Assembly: GCA_964428355.1 (NCBI GenBank)
Contig: CAYRYU010000026.1
Coordinates: forward strand, 11,521-75,520
Origin: an uncultured bacterium
GTDB taxonomy: Bacteria > Muiribacteriota > Ozemobacteria > Ozemobacterales > Ozemobacteraceae
Direction: 5' to 3'
Length of the DNA stretch: 64,000 nucleotides
Of this stretch, positions 18,024-63,890 are shown piece after piece (position 1 is the first letter of the stretch; each line of letters begins with the position of its first letter). Both the position numbers and the translations under genes were made by a program. Under the pieces are notes generated by a model. It did no database searches. It saw only the letters and a list, made by a program, of their open reading frames with translations, and was not told where the DNA came from.

Positions 18024-18091
18024 GGAAAGCCGGGTCCCATGAAACCAGGTTTGATGGCCCCGACAGGGATGGCCGGCCTTTCCGCAGACAC

Positions 18092-21289: not shown

Positions 21290-21291
21290 CG

Positions 21292-41489: not shown

Positions 41490-41807
41490 TCAGATTGTCT
41501 CCAACCCCAGCCCATTGAGAAACTCATAGGTCGTGTCGTAGGCGTGGTTCCTGGTGGGGTCGCTGTCATCGCCGGCGGGAACCACGATGACCATTCCCTG
41601 TCTTGCGCGGGTGAGCAGGACCCGGTAGGCGTTCTTTTGATAGACCTTTCGGGAAGGGCTATGAATACGCTACCAACGTTTCCCATGGAATGACCATTGA
41701 TCCCAACCCTGCGGGGTGTAGCGGAAATCGCCGTCCCATGTCACGCAAGCCCAGTCGAGTTCGAACCCCTGGACCTGGGACTCCGTTCCGACATCTTCGA
41801 GATAACA
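41490..41807 (-). pseudogene. C-terminal remnant of a DUF2075-family (Schlafen-like) helicase with an in-frame TAG
   Basis: The minus frame reads ...YLEDVGTESQVQGFELDWACVTWDGDFRYTPQGWDQWSFHGKRW-TAG-RIHSPSRKVYQKNAYRVLLTRARQGMVIVVPAGDDSDPTRNHAYDTTYEFLNGLGLETI-stop. The NAYRVLLTRARQGMVI block and the preceding QG-x-E-x-DW block are characteristic of DUF2075 C-termini. No N-terminal ATPase part is present. Confidence 0.6.
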
Positions 41808-42100
41808 GGATGGGAACCCGCCGACGATGCCTGTTTCCCGAAGGGTTTTCGCGTTGGCATTCGAACTGCCCCTCCGCCGGGGGAGGTTTTCGTTGCCGGG
41901 AATTTCCCAAAGGTGGTCTGATCGAAGGTGCCTGAACGGAAGCTCAGGATGGAAGGATTTCCGCGGTCGGCAAAATTGTCGAAGCAGTTCCCGCAGAGGA
42001 TGCTCAATCTCTTCGAAGGTAAGGAGCCGAGGTCTTCCTGCCTTTAGTTGCCCAAGGGCCAGAGGATCAGAAGCGGGTTTGGGGGAACTCTCTGCCCATG
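41808..42100 (-). pseudogene. remnant resembling the N-terminal DNA-recognition region of HNH/ScoMcrA-type restriction endonucleases, fused in frame to the helicase remnant
   Basis: LALGQLKAGRPRLLTFEEIEHPLRELLRQF...SFHPELPFRHLRSDHLWEI...AKTLRETGIVGGFPS matches my recollection of that family's pattern (PF-x-hL-x-x-D-x-x-W-x-I). No nuclease domain follows. Recall-based and unverified. Confidence 0.3.
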
Positions 42101-42240
42101 CTGGGCCCAGACCCGAATGCTGGCAAAACGCCGGCGAAGTTCCTTCGGTTCCATTGGAAGATTCTACCGGATTCGCCAGCTGGGAAGTTTCATGATCCAC
42201 CTCCCGGAAACCCGTACCGGAACCAATATGGATTACTGAC

Positions 42241-42561
42241 GGACTTTCCCATTCCTTGCTGACAAAAATGGGGGAATGTTCTACCATCATCCGGGTGGAA
42301 TATCTGCTGGAGGATTTCTTGAATTGAACGAAACGACGGGCGGCACCCCTGAGGAAGTCGAGGCCTTTTCGGACTCGTTGTTCGGCTACCATCCGCTTCT
42401 TCTGGCTGCCGGCATCTTCTCGGCCATTCTCGGTCTCCAGCTGGTCGTAGGTCTTTCCCACCTGGTGAAGCTTCCGTCGTCAGGGGTGTCGATCCTGGTG
42501 CTTGGCCTGCTCTTCCTCGGAATCACGCTCGCTTCGCGAAGATTCACAGGAATCTGGCTCA
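42241..42561 (+). repeat. right copy of the 321-bp direct repeat (promoter region and first 95 codons of gene 42276-43610)
   Basis: See 29407-29727. Confidence 0.9.
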
Positions 42562-48690: not shown

Positions 48691-48869
48691 CCGGTCACCG
48701 ACGTTCTTCCACTTCGATGCGATTCCCTTCCGCTTGTGAGAGGACCATTCCTCACCCGTTCCGGCGAAAGAATGGAATGTCCGGAATGGGTAAACGATTT
48801 CGCCGGAGCTGGAAGATGGTATCATCTTTGTGGGAATTTCCGGATGGGGAATTCTTTTCGGAGGGAAAA

Positions 48870-50003
48870 ATGAAGAGATTCCATTGGCTCGCGGTCTTGG
48901 CCCTGCTTCTTGGTGGATTGCCAGGAAGCGACCACCATGCTTCTGCCCAGGGGAGCCCCCAGATCGAGAAGCTCAGGGACTCACTCGACCAGAATCCCGA
49001 GAATGCAACGGGCTGGTACAACCTTGGCGTCCTCTATCTTCAGAAAGACCAGCTCGAGGAAGCACACGAAAGTTTCCAGAAAGCCATCGAGGTGAATCCG
49101 GAGTTGGCGGTGGCCCACTACAACCTTGGGATAACGTGCCAGAAACTGAAGCGGCTGGAAGACGCGGCAGCAGCTTTCCAGAGGGCGGGAGAGCTCGACA
49201 GTTCAAACGGATCCGCTTTCCTGAACCTGGGCGGTGCCTTGCAGGGGCAGGGAAAGTTCGCCGAAGCGGCCGAAGCCTACCGACAGGCGGCGGCCATCAA
49301 CCCCCAGGACGTCGAGTCCCAGTTCGGTCTTGCCTGGATGCTCTGGCAATCGGGCCAGGTGGACGCCGCCGAAGAGCAGTATCCGGTCCTCGCGGCTCTC
49401 GACAAGACCCGGGCGGACAATCTGTACAACCAGTACAGGCAGGCGCGCGCGGCTGGCGCGACCGGCGAGGGGAACCTTCTCTCCGCGGTCCAGAAAGGGG
49501 CAAAAGACGAGGTCGAGCAGATCCTGGTGAAGGGTGCCGACCCCAACCAACCCGGTGAGGGAGGGAAACTCCCGCTTCATCTGGCCATCGAGACGGGCAA
49601 GAACGATATCGTCGATCTTCTGCTTTCTAACAAGGCGGATCCCCAGTCCAGGGATGGGCTGAACCAGACCCCACTCCACGTTGCAGCCTGGAAGAACAAC
49701 GCCCAGGCCGCCCGGGCTCTTCTTGCGGCCGGTGCCCCGGTGGATGCCCGGGGATTCGATTCCCCCGCCGATGGCCCGAGCGAAACGACCCCGTTGATCA
49801 TGGCGGCACAGTCTGACGCCGTCGAGGTTGCCGAGATCCTGATCGAGGCGAAGGCTGACGTGAACGCCCTGACGAACGTCAAGAACGGAACGTTCCGCCG
49901 TTCAGCCCTTTTCTGGGCTGAGAAGAGCAACTCCAACCGGGTTGCCGAACTCCTTCGGAAGCATGGCGCGGAAAAGTTTCCGTCCGGAGCTACCCAGAAC
50001 TGA
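48870..50003 (+). CDS. secreted TPR + ankyrin repeat protein
   Basis: ATG at 48870 after GGAGGGA. Signal peptide MKRFHWLAVLALLLGGLPG. TPR units (GWYNLGVLYLQKDQLEEAHESFQKAIEVNPE...). Ankyrin units (KLPLHLAIETGKNDIVDLLLSNKADPQSRDGLNQTPLHVAAWKNNAQAARALLAAGAP). Confidence 0.85.
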   Translation: MKRFHWLAVLALLLGGLPGSDHHASAQGSPQIEKLRDSLDQNPENATGWYNLGVLYLQKDQLEEAHESFQKAIEVNPELAVAHYNLGITCQKLKRLEDAAAAFQRAGELDSSNGSAFLNLGGALQGQGKFAEAAEAYRQAAAINPQDVESQFGLAWMLWQSGQVDAAEEQYPVLAALDKTRADNLYNQYRQARAAGATGEGNLLSAVQKGAKDEVEQILVKGADPNQPGEGGKLPLHLAIETGKNDIVDLLLSNKADPQSRDGLNQTPLHVAAWKNNAQAARALLAAGAPVDARGFDSPADGPSETTPLIMAAQSDAVEVAEILIEAKADVNALTNVKNGTFRRSALFWAEKSNSNRVAELLRKHGAEKFPSGATQN

Positions 50004-50090
50004 ATCCGGTCGGGTCGGGTGAACCTGGCCTTCCAGATGTCCCGAGCCAGACCCCAGTTTCCGCCTGGAGTTGGTGCCTGCCCCGTTTCT

Positions 50091-50771
50091 TCAGTTTCCG
50101 GTTGCGTCTCCGCCCGGAACTCCGCAAAAGGCGGCAAACCTGGGATGCAGGAACACCAGATGGCGGAAGGTGTCGACCAGGATGGACAGCCCCGCGAGGA
50201 GATTCTTCAACCCGATCTCACACGCCGAATCGTCCGTCGTCCAAAGGTGCTCCTGGCCGATGCTTCCGGTATCGACCAGCCGCCCCGCCCGGCGTCCGAG
50301 TTTTCGCCCTGGATAGAGACAGTCGAGCAACTGGGTAAAGGACTCGTTGAACCACTGGAAGTTCTGGTTCGCCTGGTCGACGAGGAGACCCATCGGCCCA
50401 TCGAGAACCGGGCCTTCGGGGAACTTCGGGTTGAAGATCCCATCGACCTCCTTCTTGAAATAGATCGCGTTCCCGGTGTTGAGGGTTTTCTCGAGCGCAT
50501 GGATCAGCGACAGGAAGATCGCGGCATGCGTCATGAGTTCCCTTGTCATGATCAGGCCTGGAAGTATCTTTGCGGTGAAGTACATCTCGTATGCCGTCTT
50601 CCCAAGATGGACCGACAACTCGTACAAGAGCCGGTAGTAGATCTCGAGCTTCAGGAACAGATCGCCTTTCGGAGTGGAAATGACTTCTCCGGTCGCTTCC
50701 GGGAGCGCAAGTTTGCCCAGCTCCCCCTGAAGTTGGAATACCTCCATCAACAGTTCGGTTTTTCTGCTCAT
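50091..50771 (-). CDS. all-helical hypothetical protein
   Basis: 226 aa ORF occupying the space between two plus-strand genes. No confident domain. It contains one R-x4-H string (RELMTH), which is not enough to call a HEPN domain. Confidence 0.6.
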   Translation of the reverse strand: MSRKTELLMEVFQLQGELGKLALPEATGEVISTPKGDLFLKLEIYYRLLYELSVHLGKTAYEMYFTAKILPGLIMTRELMTHAAIFLSLIHALEKTLNTGNAIYFKKEVDGIFNPKFPEGPVLDGPMGLLVDQANQNFQWFNESFTQLLDCLYPGRKLGRRAGRLVDTGSIGQEHLWTTDDSACEIGLKNLLAGLSILVDTFRHLVFLHPRFAAFCGVPGGDATGN

Positions 50772-50966
50772 CCCCTAGATCCTTTCTCTTTTCCGTTAGC
50801 CCTCTTGGTGGCTCTGAACAATGATATCACGGTCGACCGTCGGGCAAAACCGTCCGACTTCTTCCGGGCCATCACCCCTGTTGTGCTATCATCTCACGAG
50901 TCCTCACCTCAACTGATGGAGGGGCCCCGTGGGTATCCCGGAGATGATCGATTCGCTTCACCCGCT

Positions 50967-52940
50967 ATGATCCGAAGAAATCCTTCGTACCGCGGCTTTG
51001 TCCTTCCCCTGGTGCTGCTGATCCTTTTCCTGGTTGCATCCTTCGCGATCTCCTATTTCCAGTTCGGAAGATTCTCCCAATCAACCTCGTTCAGACTCGA
51101 GCTCAGGGAAGCCTGCCGGATGTATTCTCAGTCCGCCCTCGAGGAAGGATTGATCAAGTTCCATCTCGAAACCGCCCGTGAGGATTCCGAAGCGGGCAAA
51201 TGGCTCCTGGGTAACGATCCCACGATGACCTTGGGTGTTCCGACGACCGATCTGGCGATGAGCACCAACCCCTGGGGGTTCAGCCACTTCCTCAAGCTGG
51301 AAATCTCCCGCGTCGATTGCCGGACCAAGGGGATCACGGGAACCCCATTCTTCGGCAAGGAACGCCTTGGAACGCTAGCCTTCACGGCCTTTTCCGAGTT
51401 TCGGAAGCCCAACGGGGAGAAGATCGTCGGGTGCCAGTTCATCCGGCACCATGAGTTCCGCATCGCGGCAATCGTCACCCCCCAGGAGAAAGGCGCAAAC
51501 CGGACTCAGTACAAGCCAGGATTCACGCTTGATTACTCACTTCTCGTCCGGAACGGATTCGAGGAGTTCCAAAGGACAAACGGAAAGAACCTGAATTCCA
51601 ACCCTCCCCGCCTCGAACTCCTCCAGCCGGGCAAGGAGAAAGCCGGAAAGATCTATTTCGGCGACACCGAATCTTCGGCCGCCGACCCGGATAAGAAGCC
51701 GATTTTCCTCAATATTCACGAATCGCTCGCGGGGATCATCCCCAAAGCTCCCGGGATGACCTCCCTGGGAATCGAGGACCTGGTGAAATTGTTTCCGGAA
51801 CTGGACCGGATCAAGGATCTCATCCCCGGCGTAAAGGGACAGATCATCCAGGAGAACAAACCTCTTTGCTTCGATGCGGACCCGGGGAATTCCCTCGAAA
51901 CGGAAAGCAGGAAGTTCCTTTCGGACAATCCCAGGACACATATCGAGGCAAACGTTGCCCCCGGCCTCTGGATCCTGTCCAGGAATCCCGCGCTCGCATG
52001 CGATCCGGATTTCGCGAAGGAAATCCTCGAGGGATCAGTCCGGCAGAGATTCCACCATTTCGCCTTTTTCCAGATCGATCAGGATTCGATCGCGGACTTT
52101 TCGGACTTCACCAAGGAGACCTTGAAGAAATACAGCCTCAAAGTGTGTTTTCCGTTCGGCATTGCCGGGATCAAGCAGTCGGAAATGAACTTCATCAAGG
52201 GGTTGCGGGAGATTGCCGGTCAGAGGAACGACCCCAATCTGATAGCCCACCTGAATTCCGATTTCCTGTACCAGGGAAAACAGGGACCAAGCCTCCCGGG
52301 TGCAAATCCCTCGTTCGACCGGCCTTCTTTCTTCGACAGGAGGAATCGGCCCGTTCCCATCGATGAAGCCGGTCCCGGGTTGGTTCCATTCCAGAGCCAC
52401 GAGCTCTGGTCAAAGGGGTTTGCCAACCCTACCCAGTTCCAGAATTCGGGATACCTTGACAAACGGACCGGACGCCTGTTTCTGCGCGGGATTCTTTGGA
52501 TCGAGAATGGACGCCTGGTGATCGGGGATTCCACCGACCCTGCCGGAGAAACGAAATTCGCCGGGTGCGGAGCGGTAATGTGCAACGCCCTTGATATCTT
52601 TTCCGGCCTCGAGCCCGAAACGGAAAAGGATATCGTCGTTTTCAACGCCTATCCCAATCGAAGCCTTCCCGGATTATTCCCGGTCAGGATCGGCACATCC
52701 AAGGAGATCCATGCATCGCTGATCGTCACGAACAACCAGTTCACCGGATGTCTCCTCCCGTCTGTCCCGATGAAAATTTCCGGCGCGGTCGTGGTGGACA
52801 TCCTTGGCATGAATTCGTGGGCACCCGGAGAGCACACGATCCAGTATGACGAGCGCCTGAAGCCTGAAAGGGACATATATTCGATCACCATTTCCCCCGT
52901 TCCGCAGTTCCAGAGGATCTCCGAAAGCGACTCCCAATGA
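50967..52940 (+). CDS. giant GspK/PilX-like N-terminally anchored protein (module B, first gene)
   Basis: Start set at ATG 50967 (MIRRNPSYRGFVLPLVLLILFLVASFAISYF) by alignment with the 19253 paralog. The 50019-50966 part of the track ORF is antisense to the 50091-50771 gene. 657 aa. Confidence 0.8.
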   Translation: MIRRNPSYRGFVLPLVLLILFLVASFAISYFQFGRFSQSTSFRLELREACRMYSQSALEEGLIKFHLETAREDSEAGKWLLGNDPTMTLGVPTTDLAMSTNPWGFSHFLKLEISRVDCRTKGITGTPFFGKERLGTLAFTAFSEFRKPNGEKIVGCQFIRHHEFRIAAIVTPQEKGANRTQYKPGFTLDYSLLVRNGFEEFQRTNGKNLNSNPPRLELLQPGKEKAGKIYFGDTESSAADPDKKPIFLNIHESLAGIIPKAPGMTSLGIEDLVKLFPELDRIKDLIPGVKGQIIQENKPLCFDADPGNSLETESRKFLSDNPRTHIEANVAPGLWILSRNPALACDPDFAKEILEGSVRQRFHHFAFFQIDQDSIADFSDFTKETLKKYSLKVCFPFGIAGIKQSEMNFIKGLREIAGQRNDPNLIAHLNSDFLYQGKQGPSLPGANPSFDRPSFFDRRNRPVPIDEAGPGLVPFQSHELWSKGFANPTQFQNSGYLDKRTGRLFLRGILWIENGRLVIGDSTDPAGETKFAGCGAVMCNALDIFSGLEPETEKDIVVFNAYPNRSLPGLFPVRIGTSKEIHASLIVTNNQFTGCLLPSVPMKISGAVVVDILGMNSWAPGEHTIQYDERLKPERDIYSITISPVPQFQRISESDSQ

Positions 52941-53419
52941 TGAAGCGAAAAGGATTTTCCCTTCTCGAGCTCCTGATCGGCTTCCTCATCCTTTCCATCG
53001 GAATCGGGAGTTTCCTCTGGTTGAACCGCATGTCGAACCAGGTCACGATGGACTCCTACTACCGCCTGCTTGCAACGAGATTGGCATGGGAACCGGTGGA
53101 GGTATGCCGGGCAATCGGGTTCTCGAGGTTGAGCCTCCTTCTTCGGAACTCCCCCAACGAGCCTTTGAAGGGATATTCAAACGAATGGATCCAGGTGCCC
53201 GAGAGTCAGGAGAACTCCGGCGGGTTTCCACGGCTTTTTCGACCTCCCGAAGCCTCCCTTTTCGAAAGGAAGGTGGTCTTCGGAGAGTTGAGCGATGGAA
53301 TGACTTCCCACATCGCGATCTCGGTCGAGGTGCGGCTGAAAGGTGAGTCCGCGTGGGGAAGGTTCCTGAAGAGAAATGTCCTGCAGGCCTCGGGCCTGAT
53401 CTGGGAGAAAGTCCCTTGA
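52937..53419 (+). CDS. prepilin-type pseudopilin (module B, second gene)
   Basis: MMKRKG|FSLLELLIGFLILSIGIGSFLWLNRMSNQVTMDSYYRLLATRLAWEP. The ATGA overlaps the upstream stop. Confidence 0.87.
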   Translation: MMKRKGFSLLELLIGFLILSIGIGSFLWLNRMSNQVTMDSYYRLLATRLAWEPVEVCRAIGFSRLSLLLRNSPNEPLKGYSNEWIQVPESQENSGGFPRLFRPPEASLFERKVVFGELSDGMTSHIAISVEVRLKGESAWGRFLKRNVLQASGLIWEKVP

Positions 53420-54225
53420 GAAGGTCGAGAAGACAGGGTTTCACCATGATCGAGGCGATCATTGTCGCAACATTGATTGCACTTCTCGTCATCCCTCTCT
53501 GGGACACCCTCAAGGGCGGGGCGAAGGGAAGCCTTTTCGGGATGCGAAAGATCGACACCTTTCTCGAAGCGGAAAGGATCCTGCGGTTGCTCCATCAGGA
53601 TCTCAAGTGCTCTCTTTTCATCATCCCCAGCGGGAAATTCAACGGGCAGAACTCTTTTCTGCTGGGAAATCCGGGAGGTGTTTCGGCCGGCCCGAAACCG
53701 AACATCGTCGTTACGAAACAGGGAACCTGGCCAAACCTCCGATTTTCGTTCGTCTACTTCCCTTTTCAGGGAGAAATCGATCGGATCGTCGGCGCCGACA
53801 GGTCGGAGGGCCTTGGGAATCGGCTTTTGAACAGGATCGAATATCGGCTCGAGGCATCGAAGGAATACCCTTCCTGCTTTTCACTGGTCAGGAAAGAAGT
53901 CTTCCATCCGGATCACCCCCTGGCGGGGGTGAATCCGGGCGGGGCGGTGGAAAAGGTGCTCAGCAACAGGGTCAATTACTTCGAAATCGAGTGTTTTTCT
54001 CCTCCCGAGGCTCCCGACGTCCAGGTTTTCTGGGTAAGGATTTCCCTGTATGAAACCCCCCCCGCTGGAATTGGAACGAATCCACCCGGAAGCATCCTGG
54101 CAGATTCGGGCAAGATCGTGGAATTCTTCGATACCGTATCATCGGATTTTTTCCAGAACATCCGTCAGACGGTCGGTTATCGTCCCTGTTACCACATCTA
54201 CGGAACCAGCGCTCCAACTGAGTGA
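53416..54225 (+). CDS. prepilin-type pseudopilin (module B, third gene)
   Basis: (TTG)RRSRRQG|FTMIEAIIVATLIALLVIPLW. Proposed TTG start at 53416 overlaps the upstream stop (TTGA); the track ORF begins at 53353. Confidence 0.8.
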   Translation: MRRSRRQGFTMIEAIIVATLIALLVIPLWDTLKGGAKGSLFGMRKIDTFLEAERILRLLHQDLKCSLFIIPSGKFNGQNSFLLGNPGGVSAGPKPNIVVTKQGTWPNLRFSFVYFPFQGEIDRIVGADRSEGLGNRLLNRIEYRLEASKEYPSCFSLVRKEVFHPDHPLAGVNPGGAVEKVLSNRVNYFEIECFSPPEAPDVQVFWVRISLYETPPAGIGTNPPGSILADSGKIVEFFDTVSSDFFQNIRQTVGYRPCYHIYGTSAPTE

Positions 54226-54290: not shown

Positions 54291-55280
54291 CTACCAGATC
54301 GGGTTCTGGTTCACTTCTTCGGTATCCTGGGTTTGCTCGACGGACCCGTTTCCTTTTTCCTCCGCGGAGTCGGAGGTCTTGGTGAGGCCTTTGTTTTCCC
54401 CTTCCTCGACCTTCCCATCGGATATCGGAATGACGGCCAGGTCGGGAAGAGAGTTATCCAGAATCGCTTTTCCCAGTTCTGTCTTGAAATCCGCATCAGA
54501 TTTCATCAGTTCGAAGAACTGGGTCATGATCTCACCCACGCTCCAATCGCTGAATTTCTTGGTAACGCCATCGACAACCTTTGTCGACGCTTTTTTCTCG
54601 AGCATTTCGATAACTCCATCCGCCACATCTTCACCCCTGGCCGCCCCACCCATTTTGGCCAGTAGAGAGATGATGCCGGAAATCATTGCCTTTCCATCGC
54701 CTTTTCCATTGTTAGCCGTTGCCGCTTCGACGATCCCGGCTACATCACCCAAGGCTTCCAACATTTTTCCCACGGTCTCGAGGTTGGGAATCCCCGCCAT
54801 GGCAAGGAAACTCGCTTCAGCCTGGAGGAAATCCCCTACACTTTTGTTCTGTATCGAACTAACCATATACCCCAGGAATTTTATGCCGTTGTTCACTCTG
54901 TCGAGGGGAGGGACGGCCATCAGGAGGATGTCGCCGAAGCTGTTCGCAATCGAGGTCAGAAGGCCATCCTGAGACATGCCCAGAATCCCGGTGAAGATTC
55001 CCGGCAACCCGTTCTTGAGAACCTCCGGATTTGTAAGGGTCTTGACGACCTGTGATTGGGCCTGGTCGGCGAACTGGCAGACCGAATCCTTGATCTTTTC
55101 CAGCTCGACCCCGACATCGAGGTTGTCGGCAACGATCTTTCCGAGTTTGCTGCCCTGGGCTACAGCTTGATCGATAACCCCCGAAATGCCATCCAGAGGG
55201 TTTCCCGCGTTCGCGACCGAGCAGGAAAAGACCAAGGCCAGAAGCAAAAGCCCCCATTTTCGACCCAGGATCCTGACCAT
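54291..55280 (-). CDS. secreted helical hypothetical protein with acidic C-terminal tail
   Basis: Signal peptide MVRILGRKWGLLLLALVFSCSVANA. Low-complexity helical body rich in G/A/V/K/D. By eye it looks less GC-rich than the flanking DNA; this was not computed. Confidence 0.72.
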   Translation of the reverse strand: MVRILGRKWGLLLLALVFSCSVANAGNPLDGISGVIDQAVAQGSKLGKIVADNLDVGVELEKIKDSVCQFADQAQSQVVKTLTNPEVLKNGLPGIFTGILGMSQDGLLTSIANSFGDILLMAVPPLDRVNNGIKFLGYMVSSIQNKSVGDFLQAEASFLAMAGIPNLETVGKMLEALGDVAGIVEAATANNGKGDGKAMISGIISLLAKMGGAARGEDVADGVIEMLEKKASTKVVDGVTKKFSDWSVGEIMTQFFELMKSDADFKTELGKAILDNSLPDLAVIPISDGKVEEGENKGLTKTSDSAEEKGNGSVEQTQDTEEVNQNPIW

Positions 55281-55392: not shown

Positions 55393-58300
55393 TCAGCGGG
55401 TTCCTTCCGATTTTCCTGAGTCCTGCTTTTCCTCGAGCGACCGGCGAAGAACGAGAACAGTGCGGTCGTCATCCGGTTCGGAGGGTCCCATATAGGCTGC
55501 GATCCGGCCGAGAACGGCATCGATGAGTTTTTCTACCGGAAGATCCCTCGTTTCGGTCCATGATTCGTCGATGGCCCGGGCCAGGGCGGGAAATCCGAAG
55601 ACCTTTCCCGACGGATTCTTGCACTCAACGAGACCATCGGAGTACAGGAGAATCAGCGATTCGCCGGAGAGAGGGATGTTTACCGAGGCAAACCGGACCC
55701 GCTTGATGATTCCCACCGGGGTGGATTGGGTCTCGATGAAAAGCGCTTTTCCCGATGGAGAGTCGATTCTAAGGGGCGCGCAATGGCCGGCATTGACGAT
55801 GGAAAGCTGGTCCTTTTCGGTGTCGAGGACCCCGAACACCGCGGTCATCATCTTTTTCTTCTGCAACATGTCGAGGAAAAGGCTGTTGAGCTTCGTGAGA
55901 AGCCCCTCGGGATCGTCCTGGAAATCCCGGGCGAGAAGACGGACCCCCACTTTCGCGATCGCGGTCACCAGGCCCGCCGAGATGCCGTGCCCGGCCACAT
56001 CCCCGAATGCGAAAGCCAGCCGATGCTCAGAGAGGGGGAAGAAATCATAGAAATCCCCTCCCACGGCCTGCATCATCCGGTTGGCCCCGGCGATTTCCCA
56101 TCCGTCCTGCTCCAGCCCTCCTTGTGGAAGAATGGCCTGCTGGATCTGTCGGGCGAGCTCCATGTCCCCGAGCCGTTCCAAGGCCTGGTTGAAAGCCACG
56201 CTGAGCTTCCCCAGCTCATCTTCGGCAAGGGAACCCAGACGGATGTCGAACTCCTTCCGTTGAATCGCCCTCATTCCCGCCCGCAGGTTTTCCACGGGTT
56301 GGATGAACCGCCAGTTCAAAAGCAGGATCAGACCGATACCGAAAAGCAGGAACCCCCCTCCCGCGATGGAAAGCTTGAGGCGCAAGGACCTGAGCGGCTC
56401 GAAAACGATATCGAGAGGGGCCCTGGCAACCAGGATATAGAGGAGGAGTTTCCCGCACCGTCGGGCGGCAACAAGTTCCCTTCCGTTCTCTCCGGTTGAC
56501 AGGAACGAGACTTCGGAGGTCCCACCCCCGAGCCTCCGGAAGACCGGAAGGAACTTGCGGTAATCGAGCATCCCTGGGTGGCATTCGAGGTAGGGAAACA
56601 GCGAGACCGCATGGAACTTCACCGGTTCGGGAAAACCCCCGTTTCGCGCCGCGATCGGCGAAAGAAACTCGGATTGGATGTATCTTGCGAAGTGCGAGGA
56701 AAAGAGGAAGTAGTCCTTCCTCCCTGTCGCATTCGAGAGAAGGTCGACGAATATGAAGTCTTCACGGTTGAGAGCCCCGAACCGCATGAAAGAACCCCTC
56801 GAGAGGTTGAATGTGCGGAGACCGAAATCGAAATCCTCCAGGAAGCTGTCCACGATCAGACTTCCCGCAGAAGCGGGTGAGGGGGGCATATTCTGTCCCC
56901 CTCCTGAATCACCCGCTGAGTCGAACATCGAACGGGCGATCCCACGGAAGAACTTCCTGTTGCTGTTATCAAGGTCCTCGCTCCCCGGCGACCTTGCTGT
57001 GTCGCTCACATCCTTCTTCGACCATGGTCCGGAGGAGTTCAGTGTTCCGCGGAGGCTTTCGACCCAGGGGGCGGACATTGCCTTGCCGTCACCTATCGCT
57101 CCCGCCTGGGGAATCCGGTCGACCATGGCCTCAACCCAATCTCTTCTGAAGGTGAGGCTTTTTTGGCCGAACCATTTGAAGAATGCTTCGTCCGAATTGA
57201 AAAACTGCCCCCCGGAAATGATTTCACTGGTAGAGGAAATCAGGAGGGAATAGTTGCATCCGATCGTTTCGGGAAGACTTGCCATCCTCTCCCGCAAGAG
57301 GGCCGGGTTACCGGCAAGATCCCGCCAGGCATTCTCCAGACCGCGGTAGAATAGAACCTTCTTAAGAAGATGGGTTTCGAAATCGTTGTCGATTGCAGCC
57401 AGGGAATCGAGCATCTTCTGCCCAAACCGCTTGGAAAGCACGCCTTCCTCCTCGTATTGGAAGGAAATCCCCCAGAAGAACGTGAACAATGCGGGGACCC
57501 CGAAAACCAGAACCAGGAAGAACGCCATCTTCCACCTCAAAGGGAAGGGAAGACTCCAACCTTCACGAGCGACTTTCCAGAGGAAGGACAGGAAGGCCAG
57601 GCTGACGACGAGGTACACTGCGAAAATCAGGGCGACCCATACCCGGGGAGCCTCAGGAGAAGGAGAAAGGCCGAGAAGGAAATCCCCGCCTTCAAGGCTC
57701 CGGACGACAACCTGGAAACCCTGGTGGAAGAAACGGTTCCCCGGCTCGCTCTCGAGCCTGGAAAGCAGTGCGGGCAGCGAATCCCGGGAGAAACCGGAGG
57801 GGAGCTTCCCATGCGGAGCTCCCTGAAACCGCGCTACGAAATGGAGATCCCCCGCCTGCGAAAACCGGTTAATCGCCTGGCTTAGGAGAAACCTGGCAAG
57901 AAGGGGCTCCCGTTTGATCATCACCAGAATCCCCGCAATCTCCTCCGGTCTTCTTCCGGCCTCGAACCTGACGTATGCCCCAAGACAGGGATCGCTGTCG
58001 GGAAGAATGTGAACGCGGCGGTGGAAACCCTTCAGGAAGGCGATCTTCTTCCGGATTCCCGGAATCGACGTCTCGAGTTTCCCGATTTGGGAATCGGAAA
58101 GTCGGGTTTCCTGATCGAACGGTTTGCACAATTCCTGAAACAGGACTTCCAAAGCATCGTTTCGGGCTGATGGGAGAATCGCCTTCCCTGCCCCGTTGAA
58201 GACACAGACATCGAAGATACCAGCAGGAAAAGACCCGAGGCGGGTTCGAAGGCCGAGATCGACCATCTCTGGTTGTGCGGGTTTGCCCAGAAGCGCTTCA

Positions 58301-58551
58301 TCGAAAAGTCCCCGGTCCAGGAGCGGGGTGAGAGCCTCCTGGATATCCTGCCCCTGGTCGATCATGGAGAGACCGTCCTCGATTTTCAGGAAGCCGCTCT
58401 CCACGCTGCTCTCCATGCTCCTTTGCATCAGGAATCCTGCCCCGGTCCAGAAGAAGAACGCGGGACTTCCCCAGAGGGCAACTGCAAGCAGCAACCATCT
58501 CCGGAAAAAGAAGGTCTGTGTACTGGGAGACCTGGCACCAGCCGGACTCAT
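55393..58551 (-). CDS. large membrane sensor phosphatase, HAMP + canonical PP2C/SpoIIE domain
   Basis: 1052 aa. HAMP domain (IQPVENLRAGMRAIQRKEFDIRLGSLAEDELGKLSVAFNQA). SpoIIE motifs GGDFYD, FGDVAGHGISAGL, YSDGLVE and DDDRTVLVLRR. The ATGA overlaps the upstream gene. Confidence 0.9.
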   Translation of the reverse strand: MSPAGARSPSTQTFFFRRWLLLAVALWGSPAFFFWTGAGFLMQRSMESSVESGFLKIEDGLSMIDQGQDIQEALTPLLDRGLFDEALLGKPAQPEMVDLGLRTRLGSFPAGIFDVCVFNGAGKAILPSARNDALEVLFQELCKPFDQETRLSDSQIGKLETSIPGIRKKIAFLKGFHRRVHILPDSDPCLGAYVRFEAGRRPEEIAGILVMIKREPLLARFLLSQAINRFSQAGDLHFVARFQGAPHGKLPSGFSRDSLPALLSRLESEPGNRFFHQGFQVVVRSLEGGDFLLGLSPSPEAPRVWVALIFAVYLVVSLAFLSFLWKVAREGWSLPFPLRWKMAFFLVLVFGVPALFTFFWGISFQYEEEGVLSKRFGQKMLDSLAAIDNDFETHLLKKVLFYRGLENAWRDLAGNPALLRERMASLPETIGCNYSLLISSTSEIISGGQFFNSDEAFFKWFGQKSLTFRRDWVEAMVDRIPQAGAIGDGKAMSAPWVESLRGTLNSSGPWSKKDVSDTARSPGSEDLDNSNRKFFRGIARSMFDSAGDSGGGQNMPPSPASAGSLIVDSFLEDFDFGLRTFNLSRGSFMRFGALNREDFIFVDLLSNATGRKDYFLFSSHFARYIQSEFLSPIAARNGGFPEPVKFHAVSLFPYLECHPGMLDYRKFLPVFRRLGGGTSEVSFLSTGENGRELVAARRCGKLLLYILVARAPLDIVFEPLRSLRLKLSIAGGGFLLFGIGLILLLNWRFIQPVENLRAGMRAIQRKEFDIRLGSLAEDELGKLSVAFNQALERLGDMELARQIQQAILPQGGLEQDGWEIAGANRMMQAVGGDFYDFFPLSEHRLAFAFGDVAGHGISAGLVTAIAKVGVRLLARDFQDDPEGLLTKLNSLFLDMLQKKKMMTAVFGVLDTEKDQLSIVNAGHCAPLRIDSPSGKALFIETQSTPVGIIKRVRFASVNIPLSGESLILLYSDGLVECKNPSGKVFGFPALARAIDESWTETRDLPVEKLIDAVLGRIAAYMGPSEPDDDRTVLVLRRSLEEKQDSGKSEGTR

Positions 58552-61550
58552 AGCGGATCACCACCTCCTCCCGGGGTGGCAGTGCCTCGGTCAGATTCCC
58601 GATCGATGCAGAGAATGACCTGTTCCCCTATACCGTGGTTCCCGGAAAGCCCCCGATCGGCTTCCTGGAAGATTTCCTCTCCGACTTGATCCAGGGGGGT
58701 CTTCCCAAGCCTTTCCAACAAGTCCCAGAAACGACCTCGAGGAGACCGAGGATCGGGTGCGAAAAATTCCGAATGGAGCCCGGGGGTTCCGATCAGGATC
58801 CGCCCTCCCTTGGGGAAGCCCATCCGGAACTCCTTGCCGGGCTCCTCCGAAGGCGCGGGGGAAGCGCCCAGGTCGAGCAGCTCAGGACTCGTTCCCCCGC
58901 AAAGGCATGCCAGGAGCCAGTTCCCAACCGCATGGAAACGGACTCCCACCAGGTCCGGATCCCAGATTCCAAGCAGGAGGGCCACTTCGTGCCCCTGCCG
59001 ACCTTGGGTGGCAGGATTCCCTGGGGGCTCTTGCCCCGGCTCCTCCCGGGGGCGGAAATCCTTGGGGCCCTGCCCGAGATCAAGGCGGAGGAAATCCATT
59101 CCCCGACGAAGGATTTCCCCGGGTGGCAGCCCCGGACAACGCTCGAACAGAAGCCGGAACGTCGTCATGTACATCGCCAGAAGAAGGCCTCGGAGTATTC
59201 CGGAGTGTCGGATCTCACCGGCAAGAAAGCCGATTCCCCCTCCTGGAATCGGGACCACCATGAAAAAGCTTCCCGCGATCGGTTCGACGCCGCGATGGAA
59301 CCCGCGTGCGCGGAACTGCCCGACGGAAATGACCCTTCCCGGAAGGAGTTCCTTCTGGACTGCTGATGCGGCCTGAATCTCCTCGAGGTCGGCCAGGACC
59401 CCGTTCAACCCTCCCGCAACTTCTTCGAGTTCATCCCCTGACCGAAAGCTGATCCGGTCCTTCAGGCGAAGGCATGTCAGGCTTTCCAGGCCTGCAGACA
59501 AGTTTTGCAGCGGGTCCAGAAGGCTCTGGGAAAAGATGAGCCCGAGGGCAATCATGAAAACCATTGTCAGGATGGAAAGGAACCGGAAACGCCTTTCCAG
59601 GTCCGAAAGCTCGCTTTCATGCACGGAGAAAGGCGTGAAGAGGAAAAGATGGAAATCCAAAAGCCTGGTTCCCGGGGCCACTGTTGCGAGGACCGATCTG
59701 CCCTTGAGGGTTCCGATCAACGATCTTGGGGAACCTGTCTGTCTTGTCTGCTCCAGGAGCTCACTGAAAAGTGCGTTTTCACCAGCCCTTCCGGGGATGT
59801 TGCCCAAAGGCGAGGAGCGGCTCTTTGGCGCGGCTCCCAGCCGGAACGGCGAGTTCCGTGCGAGACGGCGCCTCGCTCTTTTCAGGAAATCCGCCTCGAG
59901 CATGATCGAGTCGAATGTCAGGAAAAGCACGCCACGGGGGGTGCCGGATCGTGTCCTGATGAAATCCACGAACACCAGACCGGGATGGTTGAGAAAGTTG
60001 TAGGTTCCGATCCGTCCCATCATCCTGAAAAACGTCTCCAGGACGAAAGGCGCGGAAAGAAGGGCATCCGTCATCGGATTGGACGGAGGGATTCCTTCCA
60101 GTCCTTTGAAGTGATAAGCCAGGAGATTGGAGCCGAGAGATTGGAATACGTTCTTGAAGTATTTTCTGGGAATCGAGCCCGAAGACTCTTTCTCGTGAAA
60201 GACCGCATCCCAGAGATCCTTGCCTTCTCCAGCGAGACAGGCGATGTAGAACTCCTCATGCTCGAGCCCGGAGCGGAACACCTTCAGATAGTCCGGATCG
60301 GATGACCCCATGGCCTGTTTCATACTTCGCCGGAGTTCCTCCTCCCTCGGTTTCAGGGAAGGGAGGAACTGGTCGTCCACCTTCTGGAGTATCTGGAGCG
60401 CCCTTTCATGGCACTGTCGGACGATGGCATCCCGGCGCGAGTCCACGTAGGAGGTCCCAAATGCGAAAAGCCCTGCGCAGCTGACCCCTCCGGCAAGGAG
60501 AAAGATCCCCATCAGTTGCGAACGGATGGGAAGGCGCAAAGGTTTTCCCCATCGCCATCTTGCCAACAAGCCCAATACCAGGAGAAGGCCGGAAAAGGCC
60601 ACCAATGTCCTCGGGAGGTAATCGCCCGGCCGACGGTCTCTCACCGGACGGAATCCAAAGATCCTCAATCGCGAGGGGAGGTCGAAGAAGCGGACCCAAC
60701 ATCCGTCCACCCGGTTCTCCTCACCTGAATGCACCTCTCCCAGCCATTTCTTCATGGAGGGCGTGATTCCCGAGGGAAATTTCCCATGGAGAATCCCCGG
60801 GTTTTCCAGGTCCACCCATCCGAGCCGGATCTCCTTGTCGACCAGCTTTTGCTGCCGGACGACCGACTCGTTCGTGAACAGATCGCGTGGAAGAAGATTC
60901 AGGTCCAATAGGAAGATCATATCCCCGGCTGGTAGGGCTTTCGCCCTTTCCCCTCTTCCGAGCTTTTGGGGCGGCAGTGGAAACCACCCGCCCAGTCCCA
61001 AAAGGCCCAGTTCGGCAAAATCGAGGACCCTGCCGGGGGATTTCGCCATGAAAAGCACCTTCTCGGAACTTCCGCAAAAGGATTTCAGGAACGAATCCTC
61101 TCCAGGGCCAAACGGTTTGTCCAGGTTTTCCCTGCGCTGTTTCAACAGGCGCATAAACCGTTCCGAAGCGAGCTTGCGGGTGGTGGGGATTCCGTCAAGT
61201 TCCAGCCGGTTTCCGGCCGGGCCGAAAAAATAGACGCTGAGGCATCCCTGGGGAAGGAGGCGGAACAAGGCTGGAAGTCTCCCGCCCCATTTCCAGCGGC
61301 TTATCAGCTGCCTGGCGAAGTCTTCACAACGGGAGTCGGCCCGGGATTTCCGAGATGTGGCGGAAACCACCACCTCGAGTTCTTTTTTTTGCGATTCCTC
61401 TCTGGTCTGATGGCTCTTCGCTTCCAGTTCCCCGAGGACGTGGAGAAAGCCTAGGAACGGGAAAACGACGAGCACCAGGAGCAGAAAAGCGGGAAGCAGA
61501 CCCACCTGGGTTTCGAGAACCCTTTCCTTCACATCACAATGGTAAGCCAC
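58548..61550 (-). CDS. large membrane sensor protein, HAMP + degenerate PP2C/SpoIIE-like domain (predicted pseudophosphatase)
   Basis: 1000 aa. HAMP-like segment (LLDPLQNLSAGLESLTCLRLKDRISFRSGDELEEVAGGLNGV). The C-terminal domain aligns to SpoIIE but carries AGSFFMV for GGDFYD, LAGEIRHSGILRG for GDVxGHG, IGTPGLHSE for SDGLxE, and EQVILCIDRE for DDxTxLxLRR. Confidence 0.85.
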   Translation of the reverse strand: MAYHCDVKERVLETQVGLLPAFLLLVLVVFPFLGFLHVLGELEAKSHQTREESQKKELEVVVSATSRKSRADSRCEDFARQLISRWKWGGRLPALFRLLPQGCLSVYFFGPAGNRLELDGIPTTRKLASERFMRLLKQRRENLDKPFGPGEDSFLKSFCGSSEKVLFMAKSPGRVLDFAELGLLGLGGWFPLPPQKLGRGERAKALPAGDMIFLLDLNLLPRDLFTNESVVRQQKLVDKEIRLGWVDLENPGILHGKFPSGITPSMKKWLGEVHSGEENRVDGCWVRFFDLPSRLRIFGFRPVRDRRPGDYLPRTLVAFSGLLLVLGLLARWRWGKPLRLPIRSQLMGIFLLAGGVSCAGLFAFGTSYVDSRRDAIVRQCHERALQILQKVDDQFLPSLKPREEELRRSMKQAMGSSDPDYLKVFRSGLEHEEFYIACLAGEGKDLWDAVFHEKESSGSIPRKYFKNVFQSLGSNLLAYHFKGLEGIPPSNPMTDALLSAPFVLETFFRMMGRIGTYNFLNHPGLVFVDFIRTRSGTPRGVLFLTFDSIMLEADFLKRARRRLARNSPFRLGAAPKSRSSPLGNIPGRAGENALFSELLEQTRQTGSPRSLIGTLKGRSVLATVAPGTRLLDFHLFLFTPFSVHESELSDLERRFRFLSILTMVFMIALGLIFSQSLLDPLQNLSAGLESLTCLRLKDRISFRSGDELEEVAGGLNGVLADLEEIQAASAVQKELLPGRVISVGQFRARGFHRGVEPIAGSFFMVVPIPGGGIGFLAGEIRHSGILRGLLLAMYMTTFRLLFERCPGLPPGEILRRGMDFLRLDLGQGPKDFRPREEPGQEPPGNPATQGRQGHEVALLLGIWDPDLVGVRFHAVGNWLLACLCGGTSPELLDLGASPAPSEEPGKEFRMGFPKGGRILIGTPGLHSEFFAPDPRSPRGRFWDLLERLGKTPLDQVGEEIFQEADRGLSGNHGIGEQVILCIDRESDRGTATPGGGGDPL

Positions 61551-61907
61551 CCCCCGGAGAATGGCAAGGAAGCTGAAGAATCAGGCAGACGATAACCGCC
61601 CCCGCCATGGAATACGGGTTCCTCCTTCCGCGGGAATTTTGAAAAGAGTTTCCGCATGCCCTGACCGGGATTATTGACAAAACCCGGGGTTTGTTCCAGA
61701 TTGGAAAACAGGAGGAACTCATCGCCAGGACAGGAAAAGCATCTGGCGAGTGCCCCGAAGGAACGAGAAGATCCAGGGGAATCATCTGCGTAACGCTCAG
61801 GACCATGTGGGCGCGTCCGTTTGCGCTTTCCCGACTTCCGGTAACCGGCGGGCCAGGAAAGCTGAAATCCCGGATCCATCAAGAGGATTTTTCAAGGAGG
61901 TCGGCCA

Positions 61908-63890
61908 TTGAACCCAAGTTTGAGATCCTGGAGGTTTTTTGTCCTGTGCGGCCTGATCCTGACCATTTCCCTTGCCGCATCACCTGCCCGGGCCATTACG
62001 ATCCAAAACCATTCAGGCCAGGTGATCAACGTCCGGGCGTATTACGTCAGGGGCGGACTGTTCGGAATGACGATCACACAAGCAGGAAAGATCGTCCATA
62101 TCGACCATGGACAGGTCGTTACCTACGACCGCCCGCCAATGGCTTTCGGTGCCGACCGGGAAATCGTCATCTCCAACGATCCCGTGATCCTGGCCGATAC
62201 TCTGACCCAGAAGCGGTATGACGCGACCCCGCATTTCAACATCGGTGTCACGCAGGGCGAAGCGTTCCACGTCGGCATGGAAAACGGAGCGTTCAAGGGA
62301 TACAACGCGGCCCAATGGGCGGTTCTCGCGACAACGCGGGCCGCTATCGGCTCGATCGAGGATGCATTCCAGAAAAAGGTCGATGAGGCACTCGCCCCCC
62401 TCCGAAAAGCGGTCGAAACCATTTTCAAAACACATCCCTACGCGAACCGGACCGCCACTGTCCGCGTGGGAACAGCCCTTTGCCGGGAAGAGATGGAGTT
62501 CCGTACGAACCGGAAACGACGGATCCGCCCTGAACTGGAAAAGAAGTTCGGCCTGAAGATTTCCGATTCCCAAGTTCCCGTGATCGGGCTGGTGGTGAGC
62601 GGTGGGGGATACCGGGCGATGATCGGCTGCTGCGGCTTTCTGATGGGCGCTGATGAAACCGGGATTCTCGACGTCACCATGTATCTCGCGACCCTCTCCG
62701 GGTCGACCTGGGCCGTGGGTCCGTGGCTCATGGGAAAGGACGACATCGGCCGTTTCCGGATGAACCTCGCCGCAAAGGTGGAGCAGGACCTGTTCTCTCC
62801 CACCATCACGAAAAGTGAGGCGGAGTCCATCATCCTCAACCTGATGCTCAAGGACAAGATGGGCCAGCCGATCACGGGCATAGACCTGTATGGAAGCCTC
62901 CTGGCGCGCAAACTTCTTTCCGACCTTGGAGACAGCCGCCAGTTCGACGGTCTTTCGTTGATGATTCCGCGGATCAGCCGGGCGGAAGATCCGTTCCCCA
63001 TCTTCACCGCGGTGTCGAACAACATCTCTCCCGATTCGAACTACGCATGGTTCGAGTTCACTCCTTATGAGGTGGGAAGCGACTTTCTCAAGGCGTTCGT
63101 TCCATCCTGGGCGTGGAACCGCCCCTTTTCCAATGGAACCTCCCAGATGAACTGCCCCGAACCCGGCCTCGGTTTCGGAATGGGAATCTTCGGGTCGGCT
63201 TTTGCCCTCCGTGTCCAGGATATCGTCGACAGGATCTTTCCCCAGAGTTCAAAGGAAGGGATGCTGCTGAAGGCGCTCGTCACTCCGATCCTCCAGAAAT
63301 ATGGTCTTTCGGAGGAAGGCGTTCGCAAGACCGCGATCATCCCTGGCGGTCAGGTCCTCAACTGGGCGCTCGGTCTTTCGCAGACCCCCAATTCGGCAAG
63401 GAAACAACCGATTATCGAGATGGCGGATGCCGGAATGCAGGCGTGTCTTCCGTTCTACCCGCTTCTGCGGCCTGAACGGACCCCGGACATCCTGATCGCC
63501 CTGGACATGGGGGATGAAGCTCCCGATGCCGCTCCCGCACTGAGGGCTGCCGAGAAATACCTCAATCAGAGGGGCATCCCCTTCCCCAAAATCGATTACA
63601 GCCAGCTTGGCCACGATAATCTCAACATTTTCGGGGATCCGAAGAAGCGGAATGTGCCCGTGGTGCTTTACATCCCGAACATGAAGAACACCGCCCTCCA
63701 GCCCCCCTTCAACAACTTCGATCCCCACAGCCCCGCGGTCGGCGGTCTCACCGGATATGCCAGCGTCGCCAACTTCCGGTACTCGAGGGACCACTTCCTG
63801 CAGTGGAGCGAATTCGTCCGTGCCAACACCGCCAACCTGGCCCCCCGGATCCTTGAGGTGATCAAAGAAAGAACCCTGGCGAAAAAGTAG
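61908..63890 (+). CDS. secreted cytosolic-phospholipase-A2-type (PLA2_B / lysophospholipase catalytic domain) lipase
   Basis: TTG start 7 nt after AAGGAGG. Signal peptide MNPSLRSWRFFVLCGLILTISLAASPARA. An N-terminal domain of about 190 aa, then the cPLA2 blocks VIGLVVSGGGYRAMIGCCGF (oxyanion GGGxR), LATLSGSTWAVG (GxSGS nucleophile) and EMADAGMQACLPFYPLLRPERTPDILIALD (catalytic Asp in DAG). Confidence 0.85.
   Translation: MNPSLRSWRFFVLCGLILTISLAASPARAITIQNHSGQVINVRAYYVRGGLFGMTITQAGKIVHIDHGQVVTYDRPPMAFGADREIVISNDPVILADTLTQKRYDATPHFNIGVTQGEAFHVGMENGAFKGYNAAQWAVLATTRAAIGSIEDAFQKKVDEALAPLRKAVETIFKTHPYANRTATVRVGTALCREEMEFRTNRKRRIRPELEKKFGLKISDSQVPVIGLVVSGGGYRAMIGCCGFLMGADETGILDVTMYLATLSGSTWAVGPWLMGKDDIGRFRMNLAAKVEQDLFSPTITKSEAESIILNLMLKDKMGQPITGIDLYGSLLARKLLSDLGDSRQFDGLSLMIPRISRAEDPFPIFTAVSNNISPDSNYAWFEFTPYEVGSDFLKAFVPSWAWNRPFSNGTSQMNCPEPGLGFGMGIFGSAFALRVQDIVDRIFPQSSKEGMLLKALVTPILQKYGLSEEGVRKTAIIPGGQVLNWALGLSQTPNSARKQPIIEMADAGMQACLPFYPLLRPERTPDILIALDMGDEAPDAAPALRAAEKYLNQRGIPFPKIDYSQLGHDNLNIFGDPKKRNVPVVLYIPNMKNTALQPPFNNFDPHSPAVGGLTGYASVANFRYSRDHFLQWSEFVRANTANLAPRILEVIKERTLAKK

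Follow-up and report, generated by a model that had tools for sequence, protein, structure and literature searches.

A tandem pair of membrane sensor proteins with a degenerate upstream and a canonical downstream PP2C domain in an uncultured Ozemobacteraceae bacterium

The present study concerns two adjacent genes, B1 and B2 (pair B), on the minus strand of a 64,000-nucleotide (nt) stretch of DNA from an uncultured bacterium of the Ozemobacteraceae (GenBank assembly GCA_964428355.1, contig CAYRYU010000026.1, positions 11,521 to 75,520), hereafter the window. A second pair, A1 and A2 (pair A), lies on the plus strand of the window. A preliminary description of this DNA had reported for pair B an open reading frame (ORF) of 1000 amino acids (aa) followed by one of 1052 aa with an ATGA overlap, the first with four degenerate and the second with four canonical motifs. 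Both ORFs and the 4-base junction are present, with the start of B1 corrected to an ATG, and all eight motifs were found in the two translations and align within the four PP2C metal-site motifs. The two genes, their junction and the parts of the encoded proteins are listed below, with the transmembrane (TM) segments and domains of B1 taken in part from an AlphaFold2 model and its predicted local distance difference test (pLDDT) scores.

58548-61532, minus: B1, the upstream gene, 994 aa from an ATG; membrane sensor with HAMP and pseudo-PP2C domain
55393-58551, minus: B2, the downstream gene, 1052 aa from an ATG; sensor with HAMP and canonical PP2C domain
58548-58551, minus: ATGA junction, in which the TGA stop of B1 overlaps the ATG start of B2; it reads GCT-ATGA-GTC, with 4 bases common to both genes
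61443-61499, minus: predicted TM1 of B1, residues 12-30, from the hydropathy scan and a long helix in the model
60618-61442, minus: predicted extracytoplasmic domain 1 of B1, residues 31-305, mixed alpha/beta, pLDDT ~80-90
60459-60617, minus: predicted TM2-TM3 hairpin of B1, residues 306-358, from the hydropathy scan and the model
59589-60458, minus: predicted extracytoplasmic domain 2 of B1, residues 359-648, mixed alpha/beta, homologous to the same region of B2 and A2
59382-59588, minus: predicted TM4 (residues 649-667) and divergent HAMP (667-717) of B1, two helices in the model
58593-59330, minus: pseudo-PP2C domain of B1, residues 735-980
59256-59276, 59199-59225, 58767-58793 and 58596-58625, minus: B1 motifs AGSFFMV, LAGEIRHSG, IGTPGLHSE and EQVILCIDRE
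58992-59084, minus: Pro/Gly-rich insertion of B1, residues 817-847, after helix alpha2 of the pseudo-PP2C domain; predicted disordered, pLDDT <50
56170-56322 and 55441-56139, minus: HAMP and canonical PP2C domain of B2, from Pfam
56044-56061, 55984-56004, 55624-55641 and 55453-55473, minus: B2 motifs GGDFYD, GDVAGHG, SDGLVE and DDDRTVL

Read from a GTG at 61550, the ORF of B1 encodes 1000 aa (58548..61550). The ATG at 61532, six codons inside the GTG start, is the more likely start, because one gene caller picks it and the ortholog P0152 aligns from that methionine. A 117-aa ORF (61529-61882, minus), whose stop overlaps the B1 ATG by ATGA, was considered and rejected as a gene, its translation being of low complexity and matching no family. 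A purine-rich stretch, GGGAGGAGGTGGTGA, lies inside B1 just upstream of the ATGA junction, and the 4-base NTGA overlap suggests that translation of B1 and B2 is coupled. The promoter and terminator scan gave counts near shuffle expectation and was uninformative.

A common layout was observed in B1, B2, A1 and A2 from hydropathy and the model of B1. First comes TM1, followed by an extracytoplasmic alpha/beta domain of ~270 residues and the TM2-TM3 hairpin; then a second extracytoplasmic domain of ~290-370 residues, TM4, HAMP, a helical linker and PP2C. B1 would accordingly span the membrane four times, with HAMP after TM4; its first extracytoplasmic domain matches no Pfam family. The HAMP of B1 (PF00672) scores 14.7 bits, under the Pfam cut-off of 25, and that of B2 scores 36.2 bits, above it (Pfam E-values of 7.5e-09 for B2, 7.9e-14 for A2 and 1.3e-10 for A1). 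The B1 HAMP aligns gap-free to the HAMPs of B2, A2 and A1, and the model shows helices for it after TM4. Among the four window proteins, the alignment is without gaps from HAMP to motif 2, and the linker is therefore equal in length in all of them.

The SpoIIE-type PP2C family of Pfam (PF07228) was detected in B2 (6.7e-40), in A2 (2.9e-39) and partially in A1 (1.8e-12), and Pfam detected no PP2C or SpoIIE domain in B1. The B2 match reaches 137.5 bits and covers profile positions 2-191 of 192, with all four Asp motifs present, and B2 is predicted to be the catalytic phosphatase of the pair. BLASTP relates B1 to B2 (3e-14) and to A2 (3e-17) from the second sensor domain through HAMP into the first part of PP2C, and the alignment places AGSFFM of B1 opposite GGDFYD and GEIRHSG opposite GDVAGHG. 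A single-sequence search with the B1 C-terminus against PDB sequences returned nothing relevant. That B1 carries a genuine PP2C fold is argued by two further results. First, a profile of the closest relatives of B1 matches the profile of canonical members in hhalign over the whole domain (99.9%, E 1.2e-31, 228 columns). Second, in the AlphaFold2 model of full-length B1, which was built from a 30-sequence alignment and has a mean pLDDT of 78, residues 735-980 form a beta/alpha/beta/alpha pattern, and the best PDB match of the model in Foldseek is the PP2C domain of SiaA (6k4e, template modelling score 0.77, E 1.8e-8). The other best matches are RssB, RsbX, Rv1364c and SpoIIE; all are PPM phosphatase domains, with scores of 0.70-0.77. 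All four metal-ligand aspartates of B1 are replaced, by Ser, Glu, Pro and Gly (AGSFFM, GEIRHSG, GTPG and GEQV), and for this reason B1 is classed as a pseudo-phosphatase homolog rather than an enzyme of the family. Thus, B1 is predicted to be a pseudo-phosphatase with a full-length PP2C fold and lost metal ligands. No output domain other than the pseudo-PP2C was found in B1 by Pfam or in the model. The Pro/Gly-rich insertion of B1 has a shorter counterpart in the same loop of A1, and ~25 of its residues are missing from P0152.

An exhaustive phmmer search with B1 against 1.84 billion representatives returned 840 proteins at a cut-off of E<=1e-3; of these, 321 reach E<=1e-10, and nearly all of the best 150 listed are 900-1050 aa long. 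An alignment of 142 full-length family members was used for checking three metal positions: aspartate is kept at all three in 92 proteins, at two in 6 and at no more than one in 44. The best ~35 matches of B1 are nearly all degenerate. Trees of the sensor part, the PP2C part and all columns, built by neighbour-joining, each have one bipartition holding 43 of the 44 degenerate proteins, B1 included, and the upstream-partner clade has 43 degenerate proteins among its 48 members. In a neighbour-joining tree of 22 full-length proteins (200 bootstrap replicates), a split with 100% support separates B1, P0152 and the upstream genes of loci L002-L012 from all downstream genes, B2, A1, A2 and the upstream gene of L001. 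The nearest relatives of B1 make up the upstream-partner clade, and B2 has its best matches among the downstream partners known from other pairs. Two motifs specific to the degenerate clade were used for a pattern scan covering one genome for each GTDB species; its full-length matches all belong to Candidatus Ozemobacteraceae, Ca. Ozemobacter sibiricus, Ca. Riflebacteria metagenome-assembled genomes (MAGs) or MAGs labelled only 'uncultured bacterium', and some genomes carry at least two copies of degenerate-clade genes. This distribution points to the same candidate phylum as the probable source of the window. The metagenome scan added only two further family loci, and a genome scan with patterns of B1 and P0152 gave no match.

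The degenerate motifs are not uniform within this clade. The main upstream sub-group has GGE[IL][FY]D and no acid at motif 2, and the B1 sub-group has no acid at motif 1 and Glu at motif 2; semi-canonical members such as L003_U, the upstream protein of L003, fall near B1. Therefore, with different residues retained in the sub-clades, the neighbour-joining trees and the motif states suggest more than one catalytic loss within the upstream clade. The acidic residues that are left could in principle mean that B1 is still catalytic through a non-canonical metal site, which we regard as very unlikely. In B1, Glu is found at motif 2 (GEIRHSG) and near motif 4 (GEQV), other clade members have Glu at motif 1 (GGEIFD), acidic residues at some positions are conserved within sub-clades, L003_U keeps three of its four sites, and the Asp-to-Glu changes of Chlamydia CT259 in theory permit metal binding (PMC4552016). 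However, B1 has at most one acidic residue at the four ligand positions, with Ser at motif 1, Pro at motif 3 and Gly at the motif-4 ligand, the differing residues of the sub-clades point to no shared alternative site, and CT259, its residues kept, showed no activity on either RsbV protein (PMC4552016).

Pair A has the same gene order, and its members are as follows.

23664-26591, plus: A1, 975 aa, degenerate PP2C domain
26588-29374, plus: A2, 928 aa with a TTG start, canonical PP2C domain; TTGA junction with A1

Three of the four PP2C aspartates are lost in A1, which probably keeps that of motif 3 (VSDSSVE). In the trees of 142 proteins, A1 lies outside the bipartition that holds B1 and most degenerate members, and its best matches (P0131, P0142, P0063, P0078 and P0085) are canonical proteins that also rank best for A2. 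Two pairs of the pair-A type, L049 and L051, have two canonical members. Because A1 groups with A2-type canonical proteins and the related pairs are doubly canonical, A1 appears to derive from the canonical clade of A2 and to have lost its catalytic residues independently of B1. A word-indexed protein search with a combined profile of A1, B2 and A2, a method nearly blind to this family, returned no ortholog of A1, A2 or B2 and failed to recover even B2 and A2 themselves. The degenerate-first, canonical-second order noted in the preliminary description for two diverged copies is thus present in pair A as stated, but pair A is not a second copy of one old pseudoenzyme lineage, and the two degenerate members of the window, which had been expected to cluster, fall on opposite sides of the 100% bootstrap split, B1 in the upstream-partner clade and A1 on the side of A2, B2 and the downstream types.

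The same two-gene unit was recovered in other assemblies. With the two window pairs and 14 further loci, 16 pairs are readable, of which pair A is described above and the others are grouped as follows.

Upstream member dead, downstream member seen: window B, L002, L005, L006, L008, L009, L010, L012, L090 and L091
Upstream member semi-canonical, downstream member live: L003
Both members canonical: L001, L092, L049 and L051

The upstream member is dead in 11 of the 16 pairs. The downstream C-terminus is lost at a contig end in L002 and L090, and in all 14 pairs with a readable C-terminus the downstream member is canonical; the downstream gene has lost catalysis in no readable case. A B2-type gene directly follows the upstream-clade gene in 11 of the 12 cases with readable downstream context. 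Of the 16 pairs, 11 overlap by the 4 bases NTGA and two more by 11-14 nt. In L005 (nt 7739-10760), two overlapping ORFs of 570 aa and 460 aa stand in place of one intact canonical downstream partner, because of either a frameshift in the MAG assembly or a real disruption. The tandem arrangement is not due to chance, since the same order recurs in 14 other loci. Among seven pairs, the distances between upstream proteins and those between downstream proteins correlate with r=0.99, and in the 22-protein tree the sub-groupings of the upstream genes are mirrored by their partner genes. Therefore, the two genes had already become a unit before these lineages split, and they have diverged in step ever since. 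The ancestral state was probably a pair of two active paralogs, in which the upstream gene would then have lost catalysis repeatedly, in the main Ozemobacter-type clade, in the B1 sub-clade and in A1.

The recurrence of the unit across uncultured Riflebacteria argues that the dead partner is kept by selection, as the preliminary description had proposed, and several other results are consistent with that view. A word-indexed search with B1 alone returned B1 itself and one 22% match, and the 30-sequence profile added only the ortholog P0152, which is intact, 51% identical to B1 over the full length, and keeps AGSFFM, LAGE..GILRGLL, IG.PG.H..FF and EQV.LCI. Ratios of nonsynonymous to synonymous substitution (dN/dS) were determined by the Nei-Gojobori method for two ortholog pairs of the upstream clade. 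For L006/L009, the dead upstream gene has a dN/dS of 0.25 over the whole gene and 0.30 over the pseudo-PP2C domain (95% bootstrap 0.21-0.41), compared with 0.21 over the whole gene and 0.20 over PP2C for the live downstream gene; for L004/L005, the dead gene has 0.20 over the whole gene and 0.22 over the pseudo-PP2C domain (95% bootstrap 0.13-0.38). The degenerate domain thus has ratios close to the 0.20 of the live partner's domain and well below 1. Neutral decay of a duplicate whose frame simply has yet to be broken is accordingly the least probable account of B1, and hardly credible. Pfam no longer recognises the PP2C domain of B1, conservation is poor in the second half of this domain, which has a 25-residue insertion specific to its lineage, and among the relatives, where neutral evolution or frameshifts had been named as signs of decay, one frameshifted upstream-type gene was indeed found (L053). 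On the other hand, the 994-codon frame of B1 is intact, the degenerate motifs are conserved in an intact ortholog of this divergence, dozens of clade members with <50% mutual identity are all full length, the dN/dS values lie at 0.20-0.30, and the sensor and HAMP regions equal those of the live partner in conservation.

Conservation is unevenly distributed along the dead partner. Between B1 and P0152, the identity is 0.52 in the sensor domains, 0.63 in TM4, HAMP and linker, and 0.62 in the first half of the pseudo-PP2C domain (residues 735-825, beta1-alpha2). The mean pairwise identities among the upstream and among the downstream proteins of seven pairs are, respectively, 0.30 and 0.27 for the sensor region, 0.38 and 0.40 for HAMP, 0.38 and 0.56 for the first half of PP2C, and 0.24 and 0.39 for the remainder. 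The sensor and HAMP regions of the upstream proteins are thus conserved as much as those of the downstream proteins, and the first half of the pseudo-domain matches HAMP in conservation, with a loose second half. The dead domain therefore seems relaxed relative to the live one yet clearly constrained, most of all on the half with the alpha1 and alpha2 helices. This distribution bears on the main rival explanation, in which B1 is a separate non-catalytic decoy or scaffold whose dead PP2C domain binds the phospho-STAS protein or a kinase without turnover and so opposes or buffers B2. In its favour, the fold is retained and under purifying selection, CT589 of Chlamydia has been proposed to sequester RsbV1/2 (PMC5177608), and the pseudo-PP2C domain of Escherichia coli RssB serves as a binding and adaptor module (PMC12143880). 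However, the substrate-facing second half is the least conserved part, with large indels, and the best-kept part is the first half, with the alpha1/alpha2 switch and dimer face; moreover, genes that are tightly coupled in translation and diverge together more typically encode subunits of a single complex. We therefore consider a decoy role unlikely, though the least unlikely of the alternatives.

Herein, we propose that B1 and B2 form one inherited two-gene unit in which a pseudo-phosphatase subunit regulates an active one in a 1:1 receptor, a reading to which we give slightly better than even odds (about 0.55). First, B1 and B2 would be paralogous inner-membrane receptors with an RsbU/SpoIIE-type PPM/PP2C output. 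The ATGA overlap would couple their translation, so that the two proteins are made in a ratio of about 1:1. Contacts between the two chains at HAMP, along the crossing linker helices and across the alpha1/alpha2 face of PP2C would next give an asymmetric heterodimer, in which signals from the sensor domains of B1 may switch the single active site of B2. In other words, B1 would supply a second sensor set and an allosteric partner face, and B2 the only active site. The output would be the dephosphorylation of a phospho-STAS partner-switching protein. PPM domains of the RsbU family, HAMP-linked ones included, are predicted or have been shown to dimerise through alpha0, alpha1 and alpha2 with crossing linkers, and dimerisation turns the enzyme on (PMC12143880).

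The two proteins might instead be independent homodimeric receptors that are co-expressed without contact, B1 signalling by a non-phosphatase output. The sensor domains within a pair are only ~17% identical, and the partners therefore probably sense different things; in addition, B1 and B2 each have complete TM, HAMP and linker modules able to homodimerise. However, B1 has no other output domain, even very divergent pairs retain the dead-then-live order and the 4-base overlap, and the downstream catalytic residues are kept in every readable case, which suggests that the pair needs exactly one active site. Independent homodimers are thus, in our judgement, improbable, somewhat more so than a decoy.

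Several points weigh against the regulated heterodimer proposed above. Every line of evidence fits two co-expressed homodimers as well. No STAS gene adjoins pair B or lies within the 5-kb flanks of the other B-type pairs, and no RsbW-type kinase (HATPase_c_2) adjoins pair B or was found among the window ORFs scanned with Pfam. The dN/dS values come from other members of the clade and not from the DNA of B1 itself, and all trees are neighbour-joining trees only. Outside its first half, the pseudo-PP2C domain of B1 is only 0.37 identical to that of P0152, with 66 gap columns, and because of this low identity and these large indels the second half of the domain may be partly drifting. The genes are separated by a spacer instead of an overlap in three pairs, L010, L091 and L051 (spacers of 4, 13 and 209 nt among the three). 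Finally, the only exception to the pairing, L053 (Ga0100398_1004538, nt 31-2431), has a GGELFD upstream-type gene that is frameshifted near nt 1385-1590 and is followed by no partner gene over 4.2 kb; either the gene is an orphan in decay or the sequence contains an error.

The neighbouring genes offer further context for both pairs, and the features closest to the question are the following.

17238-17594, plus: STAS-domain protein of 118 aa, anti-sigma-factor antagonist type (Pfam STAS 3.5e-07)
18092-18664, plus: ECF-type (extracytoplasmic function) sigma-70 factor
18624-19256, plus: 210-aa protein with a CxxC motif and a TM segment, probably an anti-sigma factor
54291-55280, minus: 329-aa protein with a signal peptide, 113 nt after B2 on the same strand

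STAS proteins are the usual substrate class of RsbU/SpoIIE-type phosphatases, and the STAS protein at 17238-17594 represents the only candidate substrate class for these phosphatases that is encoded in the window. It is 35-38% identical to the STAS genes that adjoin the pairs in L051 and L049. Together with the sigma factor and the 210-aa protein, it stands at the head of a series of genes in the same direction, the last of which are those of pair A (to 29374). A 365-aa ORF on the opposite strand to the STAS and sigma genes (17591-18688) is probably spurious. The secreted 329-aa protein may be co-transcribed with B2; it has no Pfam match and no homolog in the other loci compared. A set of three genes stands beside each window pair (19253-22562 and 50019-54225, both plus). 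Its large orphan protein has 678 aa in one set and 973 aa in the other, with 30% identity between the two, and its two prepilin-type N_methyl proteins are 32% and 29% identical between the sets. These pseudopilin and large-orphan neighbours have no sequence match in any other locus compared; in L051, an analogous N_methyl gene and a 733-aa orphan adjoin the pair, without detectable sequence similarity to the window sets.

Three other observations were made in the window. Two tandem paralogs of ~770-790 aa (287-5094, minus) are 59% identical, and the first has an S-layer homology (SLH) domain. Two ABC exporter genes (45110-48825, minus), each with a TM domain and an ATPase, are 37% identical and overlap by 4 bases; together they resemble a heterodimeric exporter, a further case of coupled paralogs in the window. 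Domains more usual in eukaryotes occur at 61908-63890 (plus), 39434-41092 (plus), 7683-9131 (plus), 48717-50003 (plus) and 41670-42461 (minus); as listed, they are the PLA2_B lysophospholipase catalytic domain (8.6e-32) and Vps62 with an FRG1/fascin-like N-terminus, then two occurrences of ankyrin repeats, one of them fused to TPR, and a Schlafen-type helicase fragment.

Beyond the regulated heterodimer, we tentatively offer a wider hypothesis, which we hold to be possible but short of even odds. The pairs might be obligate asymmetric receptor phosphatases, a phosphatase counterpart of the pseudokinase/kinase receptor heterodimers, in which two different double-sensor ectodomains act on one active site and the dead PP2C domain serves as an allosteric activator or gate through alpha1/alpha2. 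The upstream subunit would have been disabled at least three times and the downstream subunit never in the pairs examined, and this one-directional loss would imply that the ancestral heterodimer, with both subunits active, was already structurally asymmetric. Pseudopilin-like and large-orphan genes recur beside the pairs and may point to a pilus- or secretion-like surface apparatus, and control of such an apparatus is conceivable.

RsbU/SpoIIE-family sensor phosphatases switch on stress and developmental programmes, and recent work takes regulated dimerisation of their PP2C domains to be the general on-switch. A natural family in which one subunit of a presumed dimer is always dead, with the gene order fixed and selection acting, would allow a direct test of this model and of the contribution that a subunit makes without catalysis of its own. 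Because Pfam misses the dead partners, they are likely annotated as hypothetical proteins. Comparative and biochemical studies could draw on dozens of diverged members of the family, fully active and intermediate pairs among them, and the repeated, one-directional loss of catalysis after tandem duplication is a useful case for the origin of pseudoenzymes.

In full-text literature searches, no paper was found that links Riflebacteria to these phosphatases, and none that joins 'pseudophosphatase' with RsbU. The closest precedent, by analogy, appears to be RsbU (CT588) of Chlamydia trachomatis and the adjacent CT589, which are membrane paralogs; CT589 lacks the metal-coordination residues, and its role is unknown (PMC4552016). 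The likeness is one of organisation, and orthology to CT589 is not expected: in both systems, membrane-spanning paralogs are encoded side by side, one with and one without metal ligands. In Chlamydia, each protein has a periplasmic domain and a cytoplasmic PP2C-like domain, with a HAMP linker in RsbU. In contrast, the proteins of pair B are ~1000 aa long with four predicted TM helices and two extracytoplasmic domains, and the Riflebacteria pairs have a fixed dead-first order, mostly overlapping genes and several pairs per genome. Moreover, fully active and intermediate pairs exist in Riflebacteria, where catalysis has been lost repeatedly and only in the upstream gene. CT589 resisted the genetic manipulation attempted in PMC4552016, and the Riflebacteria family bears on its role. 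A second likeness is that to RsbU and SpoIIE of Bacillus subtilis (PF07228), of which B2 is a clear family member and with which the model of B1 agrees in its matches to SpoIIE, RsbX and Rv1364c; STAS-domain genes are also associated with related pairs, and the mechanism proposed above is modelled on the control of RsbU through its dimer, linker and switch helices (PMC12143880). However, B. subtilis RsbU is a soluble homodimer activated by RsbT, whereas pair B is predicted to be membrane-bound with built-in sensors, and the proposed dimer is asymmetric. The architecture of TM segments, HAMP and PP2C output is common to B1, B2 and SiaA of the Pseudomonas aeruginosa SiaABCD pathway. SiaA, however, is an active enzyme that stands by itself and is not known to have a paired pseudo-paralog, and it acts on SiaC, which does not belong to the STAS proteins. 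Finally, the C-terminal domain of E. coli RssB has a PPM fold that has lost catalysis and kept the regulatory features of the linker and alpha1/alpha2 (PMC12143880), as is proposed here for B1, although RssB, unlike B1, is a soluble response-regulator adaptor for ClpXP without an active paired paralog.

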